The notes under the pieces are model-generated. The model was not told where the DNA came from. It did no database searches and saw only the letters and a list, made by a program, of their open reading frames with translations. The translations under genes and the position numbers were made by a program. From Myxococcota bacterium (GTDB taxonomy: Bacteria; Myxococcota_A; Polyangia; Nannocystales; Nannocystaceae), in assembly GCA_039028615.1 (NCBI GenBank), contig JBCCHT010000054.1:1-64000 (forward strand): DNA of 64,000 nucleotides, given 5' to 3'. Positions 1 to 47,623 of this stretch are shown piece after piece; the stretch's first letter is position 1, and each line of letters starts with the position of its first letter.

Positions 1-191
1 CGAGCACGTCCGGGGTAGGCGTCCGCCGTCAACAGGGCCCCCCACCCCCCAACGAAGCCGATCCCCCCGTTCCCCAACCCCCCCGCGGTCCAACCAAGAA
101 CCGCTCCGCCCTTTCCAACGTCCCCGCCCCATCCAAGAACCGCCAACTCCGCCCCCTTGCACCCCCCGAACCGAGCGTTACGCTCCCCCCC

Positions 192-41600: not shown

Positions 41601-43120
41601 GCCAACACCTCGGGCGACGCCTCGGTCACCGTGCCCACGTACTGCTCGAGCACGGGGCCGATGGCGTGGTAGTCCGCCGTCGTCAGCTGGTCGATGTCGG
41701 ACAGCAACGACGGATGAAAATGCCGCGTGCGACCGGCGAGCACGATCCCGCCCTGCCCGGGCCACGGCAACACCTCGTCGCACGCCTCGCCGACGCGCCC
41801 TCGCTCGCGACAGATCCCCTCCCATGCCTGCTGCCACTGCCGCGACGTGCCGAAGTGCTCGCGGGCCCACTGGCGCGCCGCGTCGGACACCTCTTCGTCG
41901 AAGATCGTCGCCCACTGCATCTTCCGCATCACGGGGCTCTGCCGCTGCTCGGCGAGGCGACGACGAGCGTCCGTCACCAGCCCCTGGAGGGCGGGGTAGT
42001 CGGGCTGGGCGAACACCAGCAGCCAATGGTCCACGCTGACCGAAGCGACCTGCTGCTCGGCGTGCCAGTGCTCGAACTCGGCCGTCGCCCCGCGCCGCAC
42101 GGCGCTCATCGCCACCAGCTGATCGCGAACCCGGGCCACCTCGGCATCGCCCGCCGCGGACAGCGGCTCCAGCACGGCCAGCGCATCGCCCACGAGCCCG
42201 GCGCGGACCCACTCGGACGCCAGCGCCAGGCGAAGCGCGTGCGACTTGGGCTTTGCGCGCAGGCGCACGCTCAGCCGAGCCATGCGCGACTGATTGACGT
42301 AGGTCTGCGCCAGATCGACGGTGAACAGATCTTCGAAGAGCAAAGGATCGTCGGACAGGGTGCCCGCCGCCCGCTCGTCGACCGCGAGCGCGACGATGGC
42401 CGCCCCCAGATGCCACGGGTCGGCCTCGAGCACCGCCGCGCTGCGATGACGCAGCTCCTCGGGCGCCGCACCGTGCTCGACCGCGTGCCGCAGCGCGCCG
42501 ACGTGGACCTGGGGAAACCGTGGATCGGGCGGCAGTGCGTCCAGGCCCAGCTCCATCGCCCCGTCGGGCACCAACGGCCAAAAGCTGGCGATGGCCTGGC
42601 GCGCCGCGAGGTCGTCCCCGACCTGCTCGAGCAGCCGCGCGTAGTCCCACGTCATGGGACCGTCGTCCATGTCTGTGAGCGCCCGGCGAAGCGCCCGCTG
42701 GTGCCGCTGCGGGTTGGGGTGCGCCATGATCCCGCGGACCATCAGCTCGGGGTCGTCGGCTCGCTTGGCCCAGCGCATCGCATCCTTGGCGGCACGGGTC
42801 AGCTCGCGTCGTGACTGCTTCTGCGCCTCGGCGTCGCCGTACAGCCGGCTGAACCACCACGCCGACTCCGCCCGCCGCAGGTGCAGGGCCATCGCCTCCG
42901 CCGCCCGGTAGGGACGGCCCAGGTCCCACTCGGCCCGCGCCAGCGCCCGCGCATGCTCGAGCGGATCGTCGTCGGCGTCGGGCACCTGGAGCGCGGCCCG
43001 AGCCTCGAGCTGACCCGATCGCAGAGGCGTGAGCGCGCCCTGCCGAGCCGACGCACACCCCACCGCAATGAAGGGCAGGGCCAAGAAGATCACCAAGGCA
43101 AATCGAAACGAGCGAAGCAT
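35699..43120 (-). CDS. Giant (2473 aa) lipoprotein with TPR/HEAT-like solenoid and C-terminal transglutaminase domain
   Basis: Lipobox IAVGC; long Ala/Leu/Arg helical repeats; C-terminal GDCTEYA, AHAW and IDPTW triad. Confidence 0.85.
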   Translation of the reverse strand: MLRSFRFALVIFLALPFIAVGCASARQGALTPLRSGQLEARAALQVPDADDDPLEHARALARAEWDLGRPYRAAEAMALHLRRAESAWWFSRLYGDAEAQKQSRRELTRAAKDAMRWAKRADDPELMVRGIMAHPNPQRHQRALRRALTDMDDGPMTWDYARLLEQVGDDLAARQAIASFWPLVPDGAMELGLDALPPDPRFPQVHVGALRHAVEHGAAPEELRHRSAAVLEADPWHLGAAIVALAVDERAAGTLSDDPLLFEDLFTVDLAQTYVNQSRMARLSVRLRAKPKSHALRLALASEWVRAGLVGDALAVLEPLSAAGDAEVARVRDQLVAMSAVRRGATAEFEHWHAEQQVASVSVDHWLLVFAQPDYPALQGLVTDARRRLAEQRQSPVMRKMQWATIFDEEVSDAARQWAREHFGTSRQWQQAWEGICRERGRVGEACDEVLPWPGQGGIVLAGRTRHFHPSLLSDIDQLTTADYHAIGPVLEQYVGTVTEASPEVLAALFRFRLAQGRYDDARSLLETSGELMAPSERTWAWLVIDDVESGSVTFDEANRWYAPVFTHDPDAPENTEDDEPPVSRLEHYVWGMTAGRRAQHQRALEWLMPLLDELPDEVMVDGLAQAALAAHLAGDPRLEALQQRLLAVDRHGASLALLQARIARDAGLPEVERGFLTHGLRWSPDDTTLYRELLATFAREGAPPPEAAMAFIAERAPPYDYLHEDLRRGVRDGTLSSFAAVQQALRGINGTEQDAWQVGASMLRQFPNLASRAVAWGEKNIREAESLEEAKQWAVATFELQQTAGVRHRWALRRQLWAALVADRSLSGLALARQRDPERRYRPLSDGDSLVLLLRARQAGEIDDQLAWDLWRWANDNDAPDADARVVAIIAEPPAGTLLQIFACNELTAADDEGPAYDACEKAFASHPSSASVAVNQIYLGLNDDDEAAGDRRLRAAVASGAHRASFIDEPEMALTSTLSQPWHHNYAVWLGRQGRHEESADHWLQAFAFGLNEDAGRFHAVEQVTWRGAHIRGLQTHATQNLRVRQQRRSWYALLEGRPTMARHYAEAARTMIDEEEGASNRAQLIEADERYHRARWAEADLHAGRITTEGIAQVAALFDSNDPTAAKRLHGEFPESSLVALARIQVYRELGENHRALPIAGGLAEGSTDPLAAATVIPLLADAERLDEAKAMFEAADAANPGDDLLRYVDASEFVTGARTEIPAWTRDPARYDARVAQVTSAQIAAFAPMRVTAEDRAAEIFVPGSWKPSDISPLRYRDGEGGRVLVLTNPRDSRCQGEICAADLLEQLAGSGRTLQWMRETTLVGLPATQAMFTSPEEVLVAWVLPSGGRVFTLVMAATPAQFDRLRPVLAMFRDGFRPLDGVRSAFAARSLRTAGAKLVDGWRLRARREQATVREPGVCPVPETLAALKHDHQRAELLIDLWLGMPDADARLALLECTGPREAASRRLALVALLDEDPRAHEFGVQAVQTHASRADADVRTLLSTPAKHAIAAPDYLIHTDKPPRGLVEVLGALPLSHGRTLAARLLASKDARDRRLAWAGVRLRPELATDEVLEVAMAEGSELVAEAASVMAGWGRTNDRLRLRRYLESAPSPSTARARRDMRSVAVALAWFMDADDQPLLLALPGRVEDDDDVELLETFRETLQGIAADHDQATKVQAGVDVAEPSDRALRWVSRNELYGFERREEAELREAELAELLPGEDWIFARLAAPGLFASTVADVAGRLTSENEAVDQRISDLTAMGLRAGGFAALSQTGGLDVSEPIECARAAKGGGWVCSARVTDRDALLTVLGQRKYDEDAGVSLPLTLATTAGIVPVVMSVLPAVLHFVVYPDEDDEDESDEGDDDDDEPGHFIASLGVEDDDEAEVVAPNAIERTRRTIERNGMPIEVYSIVDGKTSRIGIDSERYLFTGDRLWVFATDRDMRRVLRRVPGPALADSPEFQRLTAKWKEGAALQAVAVGDAWSLAPGGASIEVVLDESGLHFRYAAALEEATGVNDIGPALSQLPPGALTTVAHGLGRFSETAIEVDPLKATGSDATRVPPLPLFAQARGVAFGWYLEDGDHLWRRWVGVTPLDAPLRKALRKAKTPPGKSEARRHGGLCYRERADFLFVGDCTLVDQAANGPPPPAASREQLRVGYGSFDGAAIAERLPGLAGLPLEEKMVMRGVAPIFNIFTELEVEADWILATGLAVIEGHVGVRLREAGDHSRVIDDWLATKEVRNAASLPRRVRFEELEGKLRYTFEVPDAEAFARGTLVDSPRTAVEVLGPTRVRLTVEPVAASAAPVPLGKDELARLTKATDEYSSEDARIVELARSIVPEGTSAVDAAELVSQWVHERISYEVTPRVLSGVEILEAGRGDCTEYAGLTVTLLRALDIPAEMRSGMAASDDEMVAHAWVGFHDGVTWHEIDPTWGRKTATSGHLEMSVLDALALISLGKLEVVEIAAP

Positions 43121-43266
43121 CGAGGGGGGGTCCAGTTATCGCATTCGTGCCGTGGGGGCGCACGTGGTCCGAATGAGGCCCACCGGTCGGCACGGCCGGT
43201 CGAGGGGAAGCCCTCCCCACCCATAGGCCCCGAGCCCTTCAAATTGGACACCATCGTTTCGGTAGA

Positions 43267-45336
43267 GTGCACCGAGTCATCCCGTTGACCGCTCGGCCCC
43301 AGCTCCATCCTCGCGCCCGACGGTGCATCGTCTTGCGCGGTGCCAGGTCGGACACGAAACAGGCGGCCGAAGCCGTGCTTGCCGACCTCGATCCCGCCCG
43401 CGTCGTGTGGATTGGCCTCAACGACGAGAGTGCCCCTGCGCCGACCCACGAGCCCCGCCGCGTTCGCACGCTGCTCGGCCAGTCCTTCGATGCCGTGGTG
43501 CTGGATGGACACGACGGCCTGGACCCCGACGTGCTCGGCCAGTGCCAGGGCTTGGTGTGGGGCGGCGGCGGGCTCGTGCTGCGCCTGCCTCCCGCCACCG
43601 AGCTCCCCCGACCACAGACCCGCGCCCACCTGGCCGCTCACCCCTACCGAGCCGCGGACGTCGGCGTTCGGTTTCATCATCTCGTCGAGCGAGCCCTGCA
43701 GCGAGCCCCCACGGCCGAAGTCGTCACCGTACCGTCCTCACCCCCGCCCGAGCCCTTGGGCCCTCCACCGCGGCACATCGAAGGCACCGACGATCAGCGT
43801 CGCGTCGTCGATGCCCTGCACCACGCCTGGTCGTCCCCCGAGCCCACCCGCACCGTAGTGCTGGCCGACCGTGGCCGCGGCAAGTCCAGCGCCCTGGGAC
43901 TCGCCCTCGCCAGCCTCGCCGACTACCCCCAGCGCACCATCGCCGTCACCGCAGCCCACCCCGACGCCGCGGCCGAAGTCTTCCGCTTCGCCCCCGACAC
44001 CCACGCCCAGTTCGTCCCTCTGTCCAAACTCGTCGGTGGCGACGTCTCCCCCGATCTCATCGTGGTGGACGAGGCCGCGCAGCTCCCCGTCCCCATGCTG
44101 CGGCGCCTGGTCGAAGTGCACCCGCGAGCCCACCTCGCCTTTGCCACCACCACCCACGGCTACGAAGGCACTGGCCGCGGCTTCGTGCTCCGCTTCCTGA
44201 CCTGGCTCGAGACCCGCGAGCCCCCCGTCCAACGCCTCTCGCTCCGCACCCCCATTCGCTGGAGCGACGACGACCCCCTCGAGCGCCTCGTCTTCGACGC
44301 CCTGCTGCTCGATGCCGACCTCGCCCCCTTGCCCGCCGACCTGCTCCGGGCCCCCGACGCCGAGCTACGAACCGAACGACTCGACCGCAACGCCCTGCTC
44401 ACCGACGAACCGAGCCTCCGCGAACTCTTCGGCCTCCTCGTCCACGCCCACTATCGAACCACCCCCACCGACCTCCACCGCCTGCTCGACGCCCCCAACC
44501 TCGCCGTGCACGTCGTGCGCTGGCGCGACCACATCGTCGCCGCCACCATCGTCGCCGAAGAGGGCGCCCTGTCCCCCGCGCAATGCCAATCCATGGCCCG
44601 CGGCCAGATCCGCATCCGGGCCCACGCCTTGCCCGACGCCCTCGTCGCCCACCTCGGCCACCCCGAAGCCGGCGAGCTGCCCATGCTCCGCAGCGTCCGC
44701 ATCGCCACCCACCCCAAGCTACGACGCCAGCGACTCGCCACCCGCCTCGTCGAGCACGTCCACGCCCAGGCCACCCCCGCCCTGTTCGGCACCCTCTTCG
44801 GCGCCACCCCCTCGCTGCTCGCCTTCCGCCGCTCGCTCGGCTACCGACTCGTCCGCATCAGCGCCTCCCGAGGCGCCCGAACCGGCGAGCCCTCCGTCCT
44901 CATGCTCCGCCCCACCACCCCCCGAGCCGAGGCCCTCGTAAACACCCTCCGAGCCGAGCTCGCCCGCGACCTCCCCCGCCAGCTCGAGCTCATGCAAGCC
45001 GACCGAGAAACCCTCCTCGACCCCGCCCTCATCACCGCCCTCCACCACGACCTCCCCACCCCCGCCCCCTTGTCCCCCCAACAATGCGATGCCCTCGTCC
45101 GCACCTACGCCCCCGGCCCCCGCACCTTCGAATCCATCGCCCTCGCCCTCCAACAGTTCATCAAAGCCAACCCCCACCGCCTCACCCGCCTCCCCCCCTC
45201 CGACCAAGCCCTCATCCAATCCCGAGTCCTCGCCGCCCAAAGCTGGCACCACGCCACCCAATCCGCCGCCCTCCCCAGCATCCCCGCCGCCATGCGAGCC
45301 CTCCGCCGAGCCACCCGCCACCTCCTCGACCCCTAG
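43267..45336 (+). CDS. tmcA: tRNA(Met) cytidine acetyltransferase TmcA
   Basis: ADRGRGKSSALG, VDEAAQ, TTTHGYEGTGRGF, AHYRTTPTDL and GNAT SVRIATHP...RRQ motifs. Confidence 0.92.
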   Translation: MHRVIPLTARPQLHPRARRCIVLRGARSDTKQAAEAVLADLDPARVVWIGLNDESAPAPTHEPRRVRTLLGQSFDAVVLDGHDGLDPDVLGQCQGLVWGGGGLVLRLPPATELPRPQTRAHLAAHPYRAADVGVRFHHLVERALQRAPTAEVVTVPSSPPPEPLGPPPRHIEGTDDQRRVVDALHHAWSSPEPTRTVVLADRGRGKSSALGLALASLADYPQRTIAVTAAHPDAAAEVFRFAPDTHAQFVPLSKLVGGDVSPDLIVVDEAAQLPVPMLRRLVEVHPRAHLAFATTTHGYEGTGRGFVLRFLTWLETREPPVQRLSLRTPIRWSDDDPLERLVFDALLLDADLAPLPADLLRAPDAELRTERLDRNALLTDEPSLRELFGLLVHAHYRTTPTDLHRLLDAPNLAVHVVRWRDHIVAATIVAEEGALSPAQCQSMARGQIRIRAHALPDALVAHLGHPEAGELPMLRSVRIATHPKLRRQRLATRLVEHVHAQATPALFGTLFGATPSLLAFRRSLGYRLVRISASRGARTGEPSVLMLRPTTPRAEALVNTLRAELARDLPRQLELMQADRETLLDPALITALHHDLPTPAPLSPQQCDALVRTYAPGPRTFESIALALQQFIKANPHRLTRLPPSDQALIQSRVLAAQSWHHATQSAALPSIPAAMRALRRATRHLLDP

Positions 45337-45425
45337 GATCCCCTCCCCACAACGCCCAACCCAAGAGCGCCCACAAAAAACGGAGCTCCAACTCTCCCGT
45401 TAGCAACCCCCGGCAAACCTCAACC

Positions 45426-45871
45426 GAAAACGCCTGCCCGCAGCTCCCCCCATTGCCCTTCCCCAGATCGGACGGGCCCGCGCAGCACGGCAGGGGCCCA
45501 CTCGCGCGCAGCGGCGACTAATAGCCCCTACAAGCACCCAGCTCCAGCATCGCCGACGAGCACGAGTGGGAAGGAGGCCGAGCGTCAGCAGGCGCCCGTC
45601 CGTCCCCGCCCGAAGCTCATACAACCTCTCGACCCAGAGCCCACAACCAAAACCGCCCGCCCGCAGCTCCCCCCACTGCCCTTCCCCAGATCGGACGGGC
45701 CCGCGCAGCACGGCAGGGGCCCACTCGCGCGCAGCGGCGACTATGAGCCCCTACAAGCACCCAGCTACAACATCGCCGACGAGCACGAGTGGGAAGGAGG
45801 CCGAGCGTCAGCAGGCGCCCGTCCGTCCCCGCCCGAAGCTCATACAACCTCTCGACCCAGAGCCCACAACC
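45426..45871. repeat. Non-coding tandem duplication, 2 x 223 bp, each with a ~134-nt imperfect hairpin
   Basis: Copies 45426-45648 and 45649-45871 differ at 8 positions; period not a multiple of 3; nested inverted repeats CGGACGGGC/GCCCGTCCG, CCCACTCG/CGAGTGGG, CGGCGA/TCGCCG. Confidence 0.9.
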
Positions 45872-46002
45872 TAATGCACCACCCACCCAAAGCTCATAAC
45901 CCAAACGACGAAACCATCTCCCCGAGAACCCCACCCAACCAAAAGAGAAGCCGACCGCCCAAAGACGCCCGGCCCCCTTTCAGTCAACCCCGAGCCCCGC
46001 CC

Positions 46003-46995
46003 TCACTGCTCCACACACATAAAGTAGAGCCCAAACCAATTCGCCCCACAACTCCGCGTATTGAGCTCGAGAAAATCCTCGACCCCCGTCCCCCGACCAT
46101 ACGTCGCCGTAGCCCCCGAACTCGCCGAACTCCACCCAATACAAATGTTGTCCCCCAAGTTCGTCCAATCATCCGCCATCCCAGTAATCGTATCGAGGAT
46201 CGGACAAGTCATCCCACACACCATGTCCTCGACCGGATTCTCCAACGGCATCGGCGCCCCCGCCCGAACCCCGAGCAGCGCCGTCCCATCGGTGATCCAC
46301 ACGATCTCCCCGTCGTCGTTCGTATAGGCGGTGTACGGCTGCAAGACCCAGTCGTTCTGCCCATCACCCACCCACGGCGTCAACGAAGCCCGCCGCACGC
46401 TCGCGAACGAGAACATCGCCGCATACCCATCCGGGCAGGTGCTATCGGCATACGCGACCGGGTCGGTCCCGAAGTTCCCGTTCGGCAACGCATTGCCGAA
46501 GGTGATGTGCCGCTCTTCGATGACCCCCGAGCAGTCCGGCGCACACGCCCCCAGCGCGAGGGCATTGGCATTCCCTTCGTCGCAGCCCTCGGCCGGCCCC
46601 GGGTCCCCGTCGCCGCACACGTTGAGCTCACAGTTCGCGTTACAGGCCTGGCCGGGCCCGTTGTTCTCGCCGTCGTCGCAGATCTCCTGGAGCTCGGCAT
46701 CGATGACACCGTCGCCACAGAAGGGATCCGGCTCACCCGTGCTCGTGTCGGCGCTCGACGTCTCGATGTCGCCCGTGGGCTCGCCCGAGGTCTGCGAGCC
46801 CGTGCCCGGCTCGCCGCCCGTGGTCGGCCCCGGAGGCGTGGCATCGGTGGCAACGGGGTCGGCCGAGTCGCTGCTTCCCCCGGTACCGCTACTCGCCGCT
46901 ACGTCGGTCTCTCCCTCCGCATCGTCGGGGTTGAAGCACGCCGCAGGCGCGAGAGACAGAGCAACAAGGGCGGTACGACGTAGGGAAGTAAGCAT
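46003..46995 (-). CDS. Lipoprotein with Cys-rich repeats and a DUF1554 (Leptospira Len/endostatin-like) domain
   Basis: APAAC lipobox, Thr/Gly linker, two CGDG repeats, then ADSTC...RRAS...GDGQNDWVLQP.TAY...MCVEQ. Confidence 0.75.
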   Translation of the reverse strand: MLTSLRRTALVALSLAPAACFNPDDAEGETDVAASSGTGGSSDSADPVATDATPPGPTTGGEPGTGSQTSGEPTGDIETSSADTSTGEPDPFCGDGVIDAELQEICDDGENNGPGQACNANCELNVCGDGDPGPAEGCDEGNANALALGACAPDCSGVIEERHITFGNALPNGNFGTDPVAYADSTCPDGYAAMFSFASVRRASLTPWVGDGQNDWVLQPYTAYTNDDGEIVWITDGTALLGVRAGAPMPLENPVEDMVCGMTCPILDTITGMADDWTNLGDNICIGWSSASSGATATYGRGTGVEDFLELNTRSCGANWFGLYFMCVEQ

Positions 46996-47623
46996 GAGAA
47001 CGAATACGGAGTAGCACGAGCCCGACCACCGCTCTAGTACGATCGTGCTACGAACCGTCCCCCAATACACGGGATGTCTCACCGACGGCGCATGCGGTCA
47101 TCGAGACTCCCACGGCCCACCAAACAGCGATCGAAGGACACGCAGGACACGAACACGGATCGATGACCGACATGGTCAATTCATGCGCAAACGATGCCCC
47201 ATGGCCGTTTGACGCCGACGCCTCCACTCGCGATCGCGCACCGTCTGCCCGGCCCGCGCACACGTCGTCACGCCCTTCGAAACGCGAGCGCGACCGCCCG
47301 ACGACTTCGAATGGCCGCGGTGTTTCGACGCGAACGATCGAGGCATTCTGCCGCGCCCGAACACGAACCGCCGTCGGTCTCCGTGCAGTGTCACAGTGCA
47401 GGTGAAGCCGAGCGATCCAACTCGACCGAGCGATGCCGCTCGACTCCACGCCAACGACGACGCACCTCGGAGCTTTGCTCCATTGTCTCCACGAAGGCTC
47501 GCCCCGCGGCTGAACGAACAAAACGCCAGACCGCGACACCTATGAGACGCCGCGGGGCGCCCATGCACGAAATCCACGTCGCATCGATTGACGATCACCA
47601 GCCCGCCGTGAAACGGTCGCACG

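Follow-up and report, generated by a model that had tools for sequence, protein, structure and literature searches.

What could remove G from one strand of a chromosome over about 3 kb, whichever strand is coding? The question is raised by contig JBCCHT010000054.1 of a Myxococcota bacterium (Nannocystaceae, GCA_039028615.1), of which positions 1 to 64,000 of the forward strand were analysed (64,000 nucleotides, hereafter the window). A sequence-only reading had reported a local G-depletion of the + strand around a hairpin repeat, and this depletion was confirmed. Positions 45181-45240 contained 35 C, 7 G, 10 A and 8 T, and the GC skew in 500-nt bins from 43501 to 46500 was -0.22, -0.34, -0.34, -0.53, -0.30 and -0.30, with a value of about -0.05 for the remainder of the window. 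The 1-kb interval at 44501 (GC skew -0.43) ranked third among 48,740 such intervals in the genome (genome sd 0.066). The skew fades with distance as described, with the refinement that the fade is asymmetric, taking about 2 kb on the left of the repeat and less than 1 kb on the right (Table 1).

Table 1. Features around the skewed stretch of the window. Gene calls are our own predictions, with starts as predicted. X denotes the G-poor strand of the flanks, here the + strand.
Feature	Position	Strand	Remarks
tmcA-like tRNA(Met) cytidine acetyltransferase gene	43267..45336	+	689 aa, predicted start; Pfam TmcA_N, NAT10_TcmA_helicase, GNAT_acetyltr_2; codon gradient towards the 3' end
Halo, long arm	43600..45465	+	5' side of the hairpin on X; 200-nt skew -0.23 to -0.64 from 43601
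223-nt tandem unit, copy 1	45418..45640	+	
Imperfect hairpin core, copy 1	45466..45605	+	Family F2 subfamily B; covariance-model match; covariation
223-nt tandem unit, copy 2	45641..45863	+	96% identical to copy 1 (9 differences)
Imperfect hairpin core, copy 2	45689..45828	+	Covariance-model match
Halo, short arm	45829..46500	+	3' side of the hairpin on X; 200-nt skews -0.46, -0.44, -0.29, -0.13
DUF1554 gene, convergent	46003..47082	-	Pfam DUF1554; start probably near 46995; 3' end shifted to G/T

Recoding of the flanking genes

Both open reading frames are intact, and both are recoded towards the repeat. Counts at the four-fold degenerate third positions of tmcA were G13/C26 over the first 70 codons, and the two final blocks had G0/C44 and G0/C36; its NNR codons, mostly ending in G at first, stood at A11:G4 over the last 130 codons. 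Towards the 3' end of the DUF1554 gene, the four-fold sites moved from G11/C12 to G20/C4 and the NNY codons from C7:T2 to C4:T11. As tmcA on the + strand loses G and the convergent gene on the - strand gains G and T, the sign of the skew is independent of the coding strand, in agreement with the earlier claim. Five tmcA orthologues without the hairpin were flat and displayed no codon gradient. At 174 conserved sites in the C-terminal part of tmcA, amino-acid changes were G-losing in 21 cases and G-gaining in 2, and the same count in the controls gave 7:9, 6:2, 2:4 and 2:4. The 21 versus 2 amino-acid changes speak for mutation pressure and not codon choice behind the recoding of tmcA.

The sequence itself was supported by single-run public contigs (Logan, run X1, depth about 20), which matched 42500-45483 with 1 difference and 45842-47500 with 0 differences; for two other halos, 3 more unitigs of 3.2-4.4 kb matched with 0 differences. 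Run X1 is probably the source sample of the assembly, so that this agreement rules out an assembly slip and is not an independent confirmation.

The hairpin element

Each 223-nt unit harbours a covarying hairpin of about 140 nt, present in some 94 copies in the genome. The repeated part is the 140-220-nt element only, since 43700-45330 and 45901-46400 gave self-matches alone. The hairpin core shows no G-depletion, and it is kept and covaries while the flanking DNA erodes. A GYAG tetranucleotide (GTAG or GCAG) is present in the 5' arm only, and the two arms do not represent a duplicated REP. Regarding folding of the two complementary strands, single-sequence energies favour Y, the strand opposite to X, and the substitutions favour X (G.T 21 vs A.C 7). 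Short tandem duplications adjoin 16 of 91 hairpin clusters, compared with 53 of 1483 control gene ends, and many contigs of the assembly end at the element.

Rfam covariance models gave 0 matches in 45200-46100 at E up to 1, and a sigma-70 promoter and terminator scan found none. A covariance-model search of 150 other genomes of the phylum under strict filters returned no copies. Pattern scanning found 8 loci in genome contigs (1 without covariance-model support), 11 loci in metagenome contigs, among which the insertion sequence L105 was the sole real copy, and 0 loci in viral contigs. A weak model match on contig C20, within a coding gene, was put down to chance.

Orientation, shape and spectrum of the halo

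Genome-wide, X was set by the direction of the hairpin. Skew peaks had been expected to co-locate with the repeat, and 25 of 44 did sit on copies of this hairpin family in matching orientation; sequence no more than 2 kb from an element makes up 2.2% of the genome. G was under expectation downstream at 71 of 85 clusters and upstream at 19 of 20 lone clusters, and the same deficit was found in 1 of 194 convergent gene pairs without the element. All lone, non-edge clusters were negative, both downstream (17/17) and upstream (16/16). The upstream log2 C/G shift was 2.1-2.7 within 750 nt and had faded by 2-2.5 kb; the downstream shift was 2.3-3.4 within 500 nt and was gone by 750-1000 nt. The lone-copy profiles came down to background at about 2-2.2 kb upstream and 0.75-0.9 kb downstream, with linear fits ending at 2.18 and 0.88 kb. 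Where oppositely oriented copies have overlapping halos, the shifts cancel or reverse additively. Together with the orthologue and sequence-support checks, the peaks support the earlier proposal of a strand-specific mutational footprint nucleated at the element.

The polarity holds on either coding strand and for either fork direction. A replication-type GC skew follows the fork in sign and flips at origin and terminus; here X coincided with the G-poor strand of the background at 38 of 75 clusters (rho -0.04, p 0.74), and a dnaA-like gene is located on contig C18, away from the skewed stretch. An origin or terminus, which had already been argued against, is thereby excluded.

The spectrum was obtained from a fitted equilibrium composition model with 10 background settings and not from observed mutations. 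Around the hairpins the loss from X is about sixfold for G, which goes to both A and C, and threefold for T: a model with G>A x6, G>C x6 and T>C x3.2 on X fell short of the saturated one by no more than 3-4 lnL units in all 10 settings. A transitions-only model was 39-337 lnL units worse. T>A (x3-7) could be fitted as a fourth term with no gain in fit, and replacing G>C by G>T (x11-47) or by A>C cost only 3-76 lnL units. The same composition as from raised forward rates would also result from lower reverse rates or from biased fixation. Halos were without TC or CpG context preference, and a methyl-CpG or TC-specific deaminase was dropped for want of sequence context. Recent duplicates were uninformative as a direct reading of the spectrum, as were copies of the element: the unpolarised differences between duplicates in halos gave G/C 42/301 vs 477/1765 elsewhere, i.e. 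no excess. Alignments to the L105 ends, made for polarisation, were noisy and were left out of the rate estimates. Under the fitted model, error-prone synthesis or bypass of abasic sites accounts for the composition better than plain deamination does.

Relation to IS1182 ends and dependence on age

The intact IS1182-family elements L105 and L170 carry a pair of such hairpins, pointing outward, one within each CTAG-ended end. The L105 transposase scored 382.5 bits against the IS1182 model NF033551 (NCBIfam; cut-off 270), and terminal CTAG remnants were found in L203 and L190. The hairpins of the window are 73-74% identical over 143-155 nt to those in both ends of L105 (blastn), and further copies in the genome are up to 89% identical to these ends. 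Among chromosomal copies in congeners, 50-60 nt of IS-end sequence is still present past the hairpin (G004), and divergent hairpin pairs enclosing 0.2-4 kb of other DNA are common. The window copy is itself no IS1182 element, as it has neither a transposase gene, none being found within the window, nor CTAG-ended terminal repeats. CTAG occurred within 250 nt downstream of chromosomal clusters at 9/45 and 3/20, about the chance frequency. The L105-type transposase was absent from searches of this genome (G000) and of G002, G003 and G005 (genomes 72-97% complete), and G004 contained it only as a 30% piece. By homology, the window repeat is classed as an orphaned IS1182-type end hairpin. A first test of IS1182 had been negative, the family's weak matches in five genomes being without the hairpin; unlike L105 and L170, most IS1182 relatives have no such hairpin.

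The halo appears with age, being absent around young copies and present at old orphan copies. Intact L105 had no codon gradient, and intact IS copies were without a halo. In another genus, 6 of 17 copies at least 88% like the intact end were negative upstream, compared with 22 of 27 older ones (p 0.004). The halo in that genus was weak (mean skew -0.07), and in three congeners 24 of 30 copies were negative downstream, with the same polarity.

Alternative explanations of the footprint

Damage to Y is a possible but somewhat unlikely cause. Y would be single-stranded beside the hairpin, in a gap, as a displaced strand or in an R-loop, its C and A would be deaminated and excised, and A or C placed opposite would let Y gain T and G. 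The fitted rates are lesion-like, in that C on Y is hit about two times harder than A and the two exits from each base rise to a similar extent (on X, G>A 5.7, G>C 6.5, T>C 3.1 and T>A 3-7); moreover, at 77 of 90 clusters the nearest downstream gene lies on Y and is directed into the element, so that Y would be the non-template strand. However, plain deamination, i.e. transitions only, is the model that lost 39-337 lnL units, no TC or CpG preference accompanies the change, convergent gene pairs without the element show no effect, and halos are strong where both neighbours lie on X (8 vs 33 and 4 vs 23 G at C1:32395, 2 vs 19 at C8:2262). Alternatively, a hairpin on X might stall the copying polymerase and leave a daughter-strand gap 5' of the hairpin, to be filled by DnaE2 or DinB with the same polarity and no nick. 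Such a geometry is unaffected by fork direction, tandem duplications adjoin the hairpins, DnaE2 scored above its family cut-off in 5/5 genomes and an IMS-family polymerase was present in 5/5, and a repriming gap is comparable in length to the long arm of the halo. We still consider gap filling unlikely: the strongest shift is on the 3' side, ahead of the stall, and Y folds as well as or better than X, so that the effects of a bare hairpin on the two strands should offset each other. The accessible part of a Caulobacter paper gives no matching spectrum for DnaE2 or DinB (PMC7198004).

It is more doubtful that an IS1182 transposase or a TnpA-REP-type HUH nuclease acting in trans keeps nicking the hairpins, which would still be copied, and that the halo is the scar of repair. 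The conservation and covariation of hairpins amid eroding flanks and the GYAG in the 5' arm fit such an enzyme, and mirror halos surround each of the two TnpA-REP-like genes in this genome (on C13, four-fold G46/C1 on the left and G3/C37 on the right). Its distribution is against it: in genomes 72-97% complete, the L105-type transposase is missing from the four named above and the TnpA-REP-like gene was not found in the hairpin-bearing G002 and G004, whereas relatives of the latter gene occur in G003, where no hairpin was found. There were 0 hairpin matches beside the fetched Y1 or Y2 genes, and the lack of halos around intact IS copies also counts against nicking. A TnpA-REP/RAYT partner was rejected, as the two genes here are flanked by their own single-locus repeats and not by the hairpin, with a mismatched distribution; an IS91-type Y2 transposase was likewise rejected, none being found in G000 and no hairpin lying beside those of four congeners. 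Selection against G and T on X near the hairpin, for an unstructured C/A-rich RNA or ssDNA of the Rho-utilisation kind, is very improbable. Equal multipliers on every exit from G do resemble a penalty on a state and not a bias of single changes, but the effect covers 3 kb, both coding strands and the amino acids of a conserved enzyme, and overlapping opposite copies combine additively. A sequencing or assembly artefact deserves hardly any credence: this is a metagenome assembly in which many contigs break at the element, yet frames are open, silent sites are altered first, public-run contigs agree, and the polarity is repeated in other genomes, including the 24 of 30 copies in the three congeners.

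Proposed repeated low-fidelity re-synthesis

Tentatively, we favour a footprint left by a low-fidelity polymerase that repeatedly re-synthesises the complement of the folded strand; the enzyme is most likely the host Pol I, an identity that we infer. X would be the strand that folds. Patches of new Y would start up to 0.9 kb 3' of the hairpin, pass through it in the 5' to 3' direction and reach a length of up to about 2 kb. The trigger may be an RNA primer or an R-loop, a structure-specific nuclease of the host or a transposase in trans. The nascent strand would collect C>T, A>G, C>G and A>T errors, so that Y would drift to G/T and X to C/A, and long residence would bring silent sites to a new equilibrium and spill into amino acids.

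In the parts available of a ColE1 study with an error-prone Pol I (Allen et al. 2011, PMC3167613), nascent-strand errors were C>T 140:29, A>G 32:9, A>T 18:7 and C>G 6:2, the last rare and non-significant, and the footprint faded over at least 1.3 kb. Under the equilibrium model, the halo on Y matches these partial ColE1 data in its directions and in its length above 1 kb. The host Pol I has H/A, Q and H at the positions of Klenow D/E, D and D, and none of the 30 aligned family members kept all four proofreading residues. The host enzyme is thus predicted to lack proofreading, a state that is family-wide and common in bacteria and so permits the Pol I model without singling it out. Several points stand against re-synthesis: it does not explain a synthesis start up to 0.9 kb ahead of the hairpin, recent duplicates in halos lack a G/C excess, folding energies and substitutions disagree on the strand that folds, and the halo of the other genus is weak.

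More tentatively still, the IS-derived hairpin may be a cis-acting directional mutator, which without an enzyme of its own would have one strand re-synthesised at low fidelity over about 3 kb and recode its neighbours as far as their amino acids. This host process, if also started at REP loci, at parS and in PKS genes, might be the missing source of the skew in GRINS, and the hairpin could serve as a portable tool for strand-polar mutagenesis. The skew described here has a defined 140-nt anchor, direction, length and spectrum, recurs at about 100 sites as well as in related genomes, and comes with the age of a copy; the cause of GRINS-like skew thereby becomes testable. If the reading is true, genes next to a leftover transposon end mutate at a higher rate and with a bias, and this bears on codon-usage, dN/dS, horizontal-transfer and origin-finding analyses that assume a replication-derived skew.

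Comparison with known systems

GRINS and the ColE1 Pol I footprint are the nearest known systems. In the literature covered, mostly main texts outside subscription journals, we found no account of repeat-anchored one-strand halos, and for the IS1182 family none of such hairpins or halos. According to the accessible text on GRINS (PMC8256042), these are kb-scale tracts with one strand rich in G+T and the other in C+A, strongest at third positions and in intact genes, shifting Gly/Val against Pro/Thr/His. They are defined as duplicated coding regions (>500 bp, >80%) spread by gene conversion and often overlap transposases; single-copy skewed regions exist too, and the cause is given there as unknown, with error-prone replication as a guess. 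As far as that text goes, the halo shares the one-strand C+A versus G+T skew, its strength at third positions, the shift of Gly/Val against Pro/Thr/His and the intact genes, and its values of 0.37 and 0.23 over 43700-46400 are as in GRINS. GC and TA skew in GRINS typically, though not necessarily, show a positive correlation by window; here r was 0.17 for the whole stretch and -0.42 over 44900-46300, with both skews of one sign. In contrast to GRINS as portrayed there, the flanks are single-copy, no second region in the cluster or genome matching them at >80% identity, and it is a non-coding hairpin that anchors the skew and sets its orientation, the polar shape being fixed.

Judged from the passages available on REP/REPIN-RAYT and TIRtron-TIRYT systems (PMC3733652, PMC6006769, PMC3116915, bioRxiv 10.1101/2021.07.10.451892), the element resembles these extragenic imperfect palindromes in its variable loop, its GYAG motif and its occurrence as singles, tandem arrays and inverted pairs, mostly at 3' ends of genes, and the TnpA-REP-like loci of this genome have the same kind of halo. 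Compositional halos were not described in the passages of those papers that mention skew. The element differs from what these passages report in its length of about 140 nt with conserved asymmetric internal loops, REP palindromes being 20-40 nt with a terminal GTAG-type tag and often paired as inverted dimers, and in flanking no cognate Y1 gene, its tie being to a DDE transposase. With the ColE1 Pol I footprint, as far as that study was available, it shares an excess of C>T, A>G, A>T and C>G on one strand, which in ColE1 starts at a fixed site and takes more than 1.3 kb to fade; whereas the ColE1 footprint belongs to a plasmid origin and an engineered polymerase under laboratory conditions, the halo is chromosomal and natural, is repeated at about 100 sites and includes a short arm on the other side.

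Halos around the hairpin repeat

The loss of G, and also of T, from one strand around the hairpin repeat of the window, here termed the halo, is real, general in this genome (G000; 12.3 Mb, 68% GC, 94 contigs, the window being contig C54) and reproducible in relatives. The base counts, the codon shifts in both flanking genes and the fade with distance were found on recounting as the sequence-only reading had described them, and the absolute GC skew of the 1-kb window at 44501 ranked third among 48,740 genome-wide. Strand X is the one on which the window copies read (+ in the window), and Y is its opposite. Contigs of the public sequencing run X1, which is probably the source sample of the genome, differed from the stretch at one position in about 4.6 kb and from two other halos at none; an artefact is extremely improbable. 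The run with the stretch is a marine metagenome, and the named records with the same element are Myxococcota.

A core of ~140 nt inside the 223-nt unit folds into a single long imperfect hairpin (z only −1.5 for the lone sequence). An iterated profile of this family, F2, matched the genome 99 times at E<1e-3 and 94 times at E<1e-8, the latter in 71 clusters and comprising subfamily A (67 copies) and subfamily B (27 copies, including those of the window). An alignment of 37 hand-chosen copies (four genomes and one metagenome contig) showed change on both sides at 18 of 27 pairs and pairing in 95% of cells, versus 29-46% in slid controls, figures which are no probability as the copies are kin. 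The internal loops are conserved and asymmetric, and the terminal loop is variable. The folded strand is probably X; across three families, the pairs left by substitutions on X were G.T 21 times and A.C 7 times, and single-sequence folding energies favour Y. Rfam held no match for the element. Skew peaks without other explanation yielded two further families, F3 with 20 copies and F6 with 15. They were oriented by the skew itself, which makes their counts circular, and compared by eye they carry the internal-loop motifs of F2 on the same strand. No halo surrounds a 167-nt symmetric repeat whose terminal repeats are perfect (470 G versus 453 expected, six full copies). Some divergent hairpin pairs enclose passenger DNA, often tandemly duplicated and non-coding; by eye, the passengers presumably include a macrodomain-plus-TIR-like protein, an endonuclease/phosphatase-like protein and an IS256-like fragment.

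That the skew goes with the element was borne out genome-wide. F2 is held in matching orientation by 25 of the 44 peaks (|skew|>0.25), and F2, F3 or F6 by 31, with 2.2% of the genome lying at most 2 kb from an element. The 13 other peaks, of which two are parS flanks and one is a TnpA-REP-like locus, may hold further or decayed anchors. Read on X, four-fold sites carried fewer G than expected on the downstream side of 71 of 85 clusters and, among lone clusters, on the upstream side of 19 of 20; of 194 convergent gene pairs without an element, 1 had a like deficit. Most exceptions arise because the two halos of close divergent pairs sum and cancel in part. In 17 lone clusters, chosen to avoid contig ends, the upstream log2 C/G shift was 2.1-2.7 within 750 nt, 1.2 at 1-1.5 kb and 0.25 at 2-2.5 kb; downstream it was 2.3-3.4 within 500 nt and 0.9 at 500-750 nt, with none farther out. 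Linear fits reach zero at 2.18 kb upstream and 0.88 kb downstream. Fork direction had no effect: at 38 of 75 clusters X coincided with the strand that is G-poor in the background (rho −0.04). In 77 of 90 clusters the nearest downstream gene reads towards the element.

Seven of the 40 relatives searched have tmcA, and six orthologues were aligned, one split copy being left out. Along the gene of the window four-fold G falls by segment from 28 to 19, 14, 6 and 0. Five orthologues without the element show no gradient (26-62 per segment), in keeping with the earlier attribution of the codon shift to the element; the sixth, in genome G008, is G-poor throughout because it sits in a 50-kb skewed region of a different kind, its own G having been lost to C and not to A. 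At sites conserved in three congeners, G-losing versus G-gaining amino-acid changes numbered 21 versus 2 in the C-terminal part of tmcA (174 sites) and 20 versus 8 in the N-terminal part (205 sites). The control ratios were 7:9, 6:2, 2:4 and 2:4, and the 21:2 excess over them shows that the pressure reaches the protein. The element was found in four of five congeners, and one of 67 further genomes of the family gave a weak match (L105 query, see below); 24 of 30 congener copies examined were G-poor downstream.

Coordinates of the features discussed in the text
Feature	Location	Remarks
Truncated hairpin copy of the same family	window 1-40 (+)	contig start; first 500 nt are its downstream halo, skew −0.36
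tmcA	window 43267..45336 (+)
Base difference	window 45112	C in genome, A in X1 Logan contig; sole difference in ~3 kb of tmcA
F2 tandem units	window 45418-45640, 45641-45863 (+)	223 nt each
DUF1554 gene	window 46003..47082 (-)	convergent
Second, shorter family-A DNA polymerase frame	G000:C1:619944-621953	670 aa between stops, additional to polA; candidate low-fidelity enzyme
TGTTTCACGTGAAACA site cluster	G000:C18:17000-20500 (L010); L168:8500-11000; L169:8000-13500	on mirror skew flip; 3/3 genomes with site
TnpA-REP-like genes	G000:C13:39400-42400 (L016); G000:C8:230700-232800	67% identical; NF047646 below cut-off
167-nt miniature element	G000:C9:260864-261030	and five more full copies; near-perfect terminal repeats, inner hairpin, no halo
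Divergent hairpin pairs with passengers	L004 (G000:C18:62490-63870); G000:C8:572-2262; G000:C50:91696-92753
Strong one-strand peaks without F2/F3/F6	G000:C30:65250-67000; C49:85250-87000; C11:155250-157000; C28:50500-52000
Skewed region of G008	L073:4500 to L074:20000 (G008:C22:769500-825000)	>50 kb, GC skew −0.1 to −0.4; begins directly after CRISPR-like array

Descent from IS1182 ends

The metagenome contig L105 represents a complete IS1182-family element (scoring 382.5 bits against a cut-off of 270), whose terminal repeats end in CTAG and which has one outward-pointing subfamily-B hairpin inside each end. A second intact IS1182-family element (L170), from a different genus of the same bacterial family, has a related hairpin pair, and L174 and L180 are decayed hairpin-bearing cases. 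In genome G004 the chromosomal copies still continue past the hairpin for 50-60 nt into one or the other IS end, the terminal repeat itself being eroded, and the CTAG end is still present in the copies at L203 and L190. Judged by these likenesses, the repeat of the window is an orphan of such IS1182-family ends. Among 19 more distant IS1182 relatives the hairpin was matched in L125 only, weakly (E 0.011), and seven identical IS1182 copies in genome G456 (63% identity) are without it, which counts against a general link between IS1182 and the hairpin.

The transposase gene of L105 shows no codon gradient, and the flanks of L170 show no halo. Five genomes of the genus g17 yielded 118 matches, and 44 distinct copies with enough flank were examined. 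Those that resembled the intact end at 88% or more were upstream-negative in 6 of 17 cases and four kept the terminal repeat, versus 22 of 27 and none among the older copies (p 0.004, for kin copies that are not independent, the effect in g17 being weak). The halo builds up with time.

Substitution spectrum and mechanism

Within the strong zone the counts were A106:G103 for NNR codons on X (background 16:84), T147:C116 for NNY codons on Y (background 17:83) and C721 G97 A62 T19 for four-fold sites on X. A mutation-selection equilibrium model requires on X a sixfold G>A, a sixfold G>C and a threefold T>C, which on Y read C>T, C>G and A>G. A transitions-only model was 39-337 lnL units worse, and a third term of G>T or A>C lowered the fit by 3-76 units. 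The G/C excess was not directly visible in recent duplicates. Short tandem duplications were enriched near the hairpins, at 16 of 91 clusters versus 53 of 1483 controls, which were imperfectly matched.

A substitution process anchored at the element and polar in strand very probably operates; its mechanism we infer. Error-prone Pol I acting on ColE1 makes strands in which C>T, A>G, A>T and C>G outnumber the complementary changes, a footprint that declines over 1.3 kb or more (PMC3167613). The substitution directions on Y are the same, and the long arm of the halo is Y 5'->3' from the hairpin. The Pol I of this genome is without the acidic residues present in the three exonuclease motifs of Klenow, where they are catalytic, and none of 30 aligned Pol I sequences of the family keeps the full set. 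Because of these directions, this polarity and this Pol I, we tentatively prefer a low-fidelity re-synthesis in which Y would be made again and again from a start near the hairpin. Damage to an exposed Y with bypass of abasic sites is a rather doubtful alternative, and no TC or CpG context preference was seen. Gap filling by a translesion polymerase behind a hairpin-stalled polymerase, for which DnaE2 and DinB-like genes are present, is unlikely.

A transposase or HUH nuclease acting in trans is quite unlikely; no L105-type transposase was found in G000. Mirror halos at two TnpA-REP-like loci and at a parS-like cluster, where no hairpin sequence is shared, suggest that host machinery suffices. 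Those at the parS-like cluster, seen in three of three genomes with the site, suggest that protein-bound sites besides hairpins can cause such halos. Selection is very unlikely; the halo is present for genes on either strand, including loci with both neighbours on X.

The TGTTTCACGTGAAACA motif, which we take to be the parS consensus, clusters ~11 kb from a dnaA-like gene, the entering strand being G/T-rich and the leaving strand C/A-rich; no paper on a skew flip at parS-like sites was found in the literature. Single-locus inverted repeats and strong outward halos lie on either side of both TnpA-REP-like genes, and at one such locus the end of a trpS-like gene has four-fold G46/C1.

Comparison with known systems

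A literature search, covering main texts outside the subscription journals, found no description of such halos. The window element descends from IS1182 ends but is not itself an IS. Nor is it a member of REPIN-RAYT, since it flanked no cognate Y1 gene among those examined. The ColE1 Pol I footprint is alike in spectrum and length; a primer at the halos here is hypothetical. The GRINS tracts, with G+T versus C+A skew, are alike in composition; the skewed DNA here is single-copy and so falls outside their definition (PMC8256042). What is new here is a skew of the GRINS type with a defined non-coding anchor.
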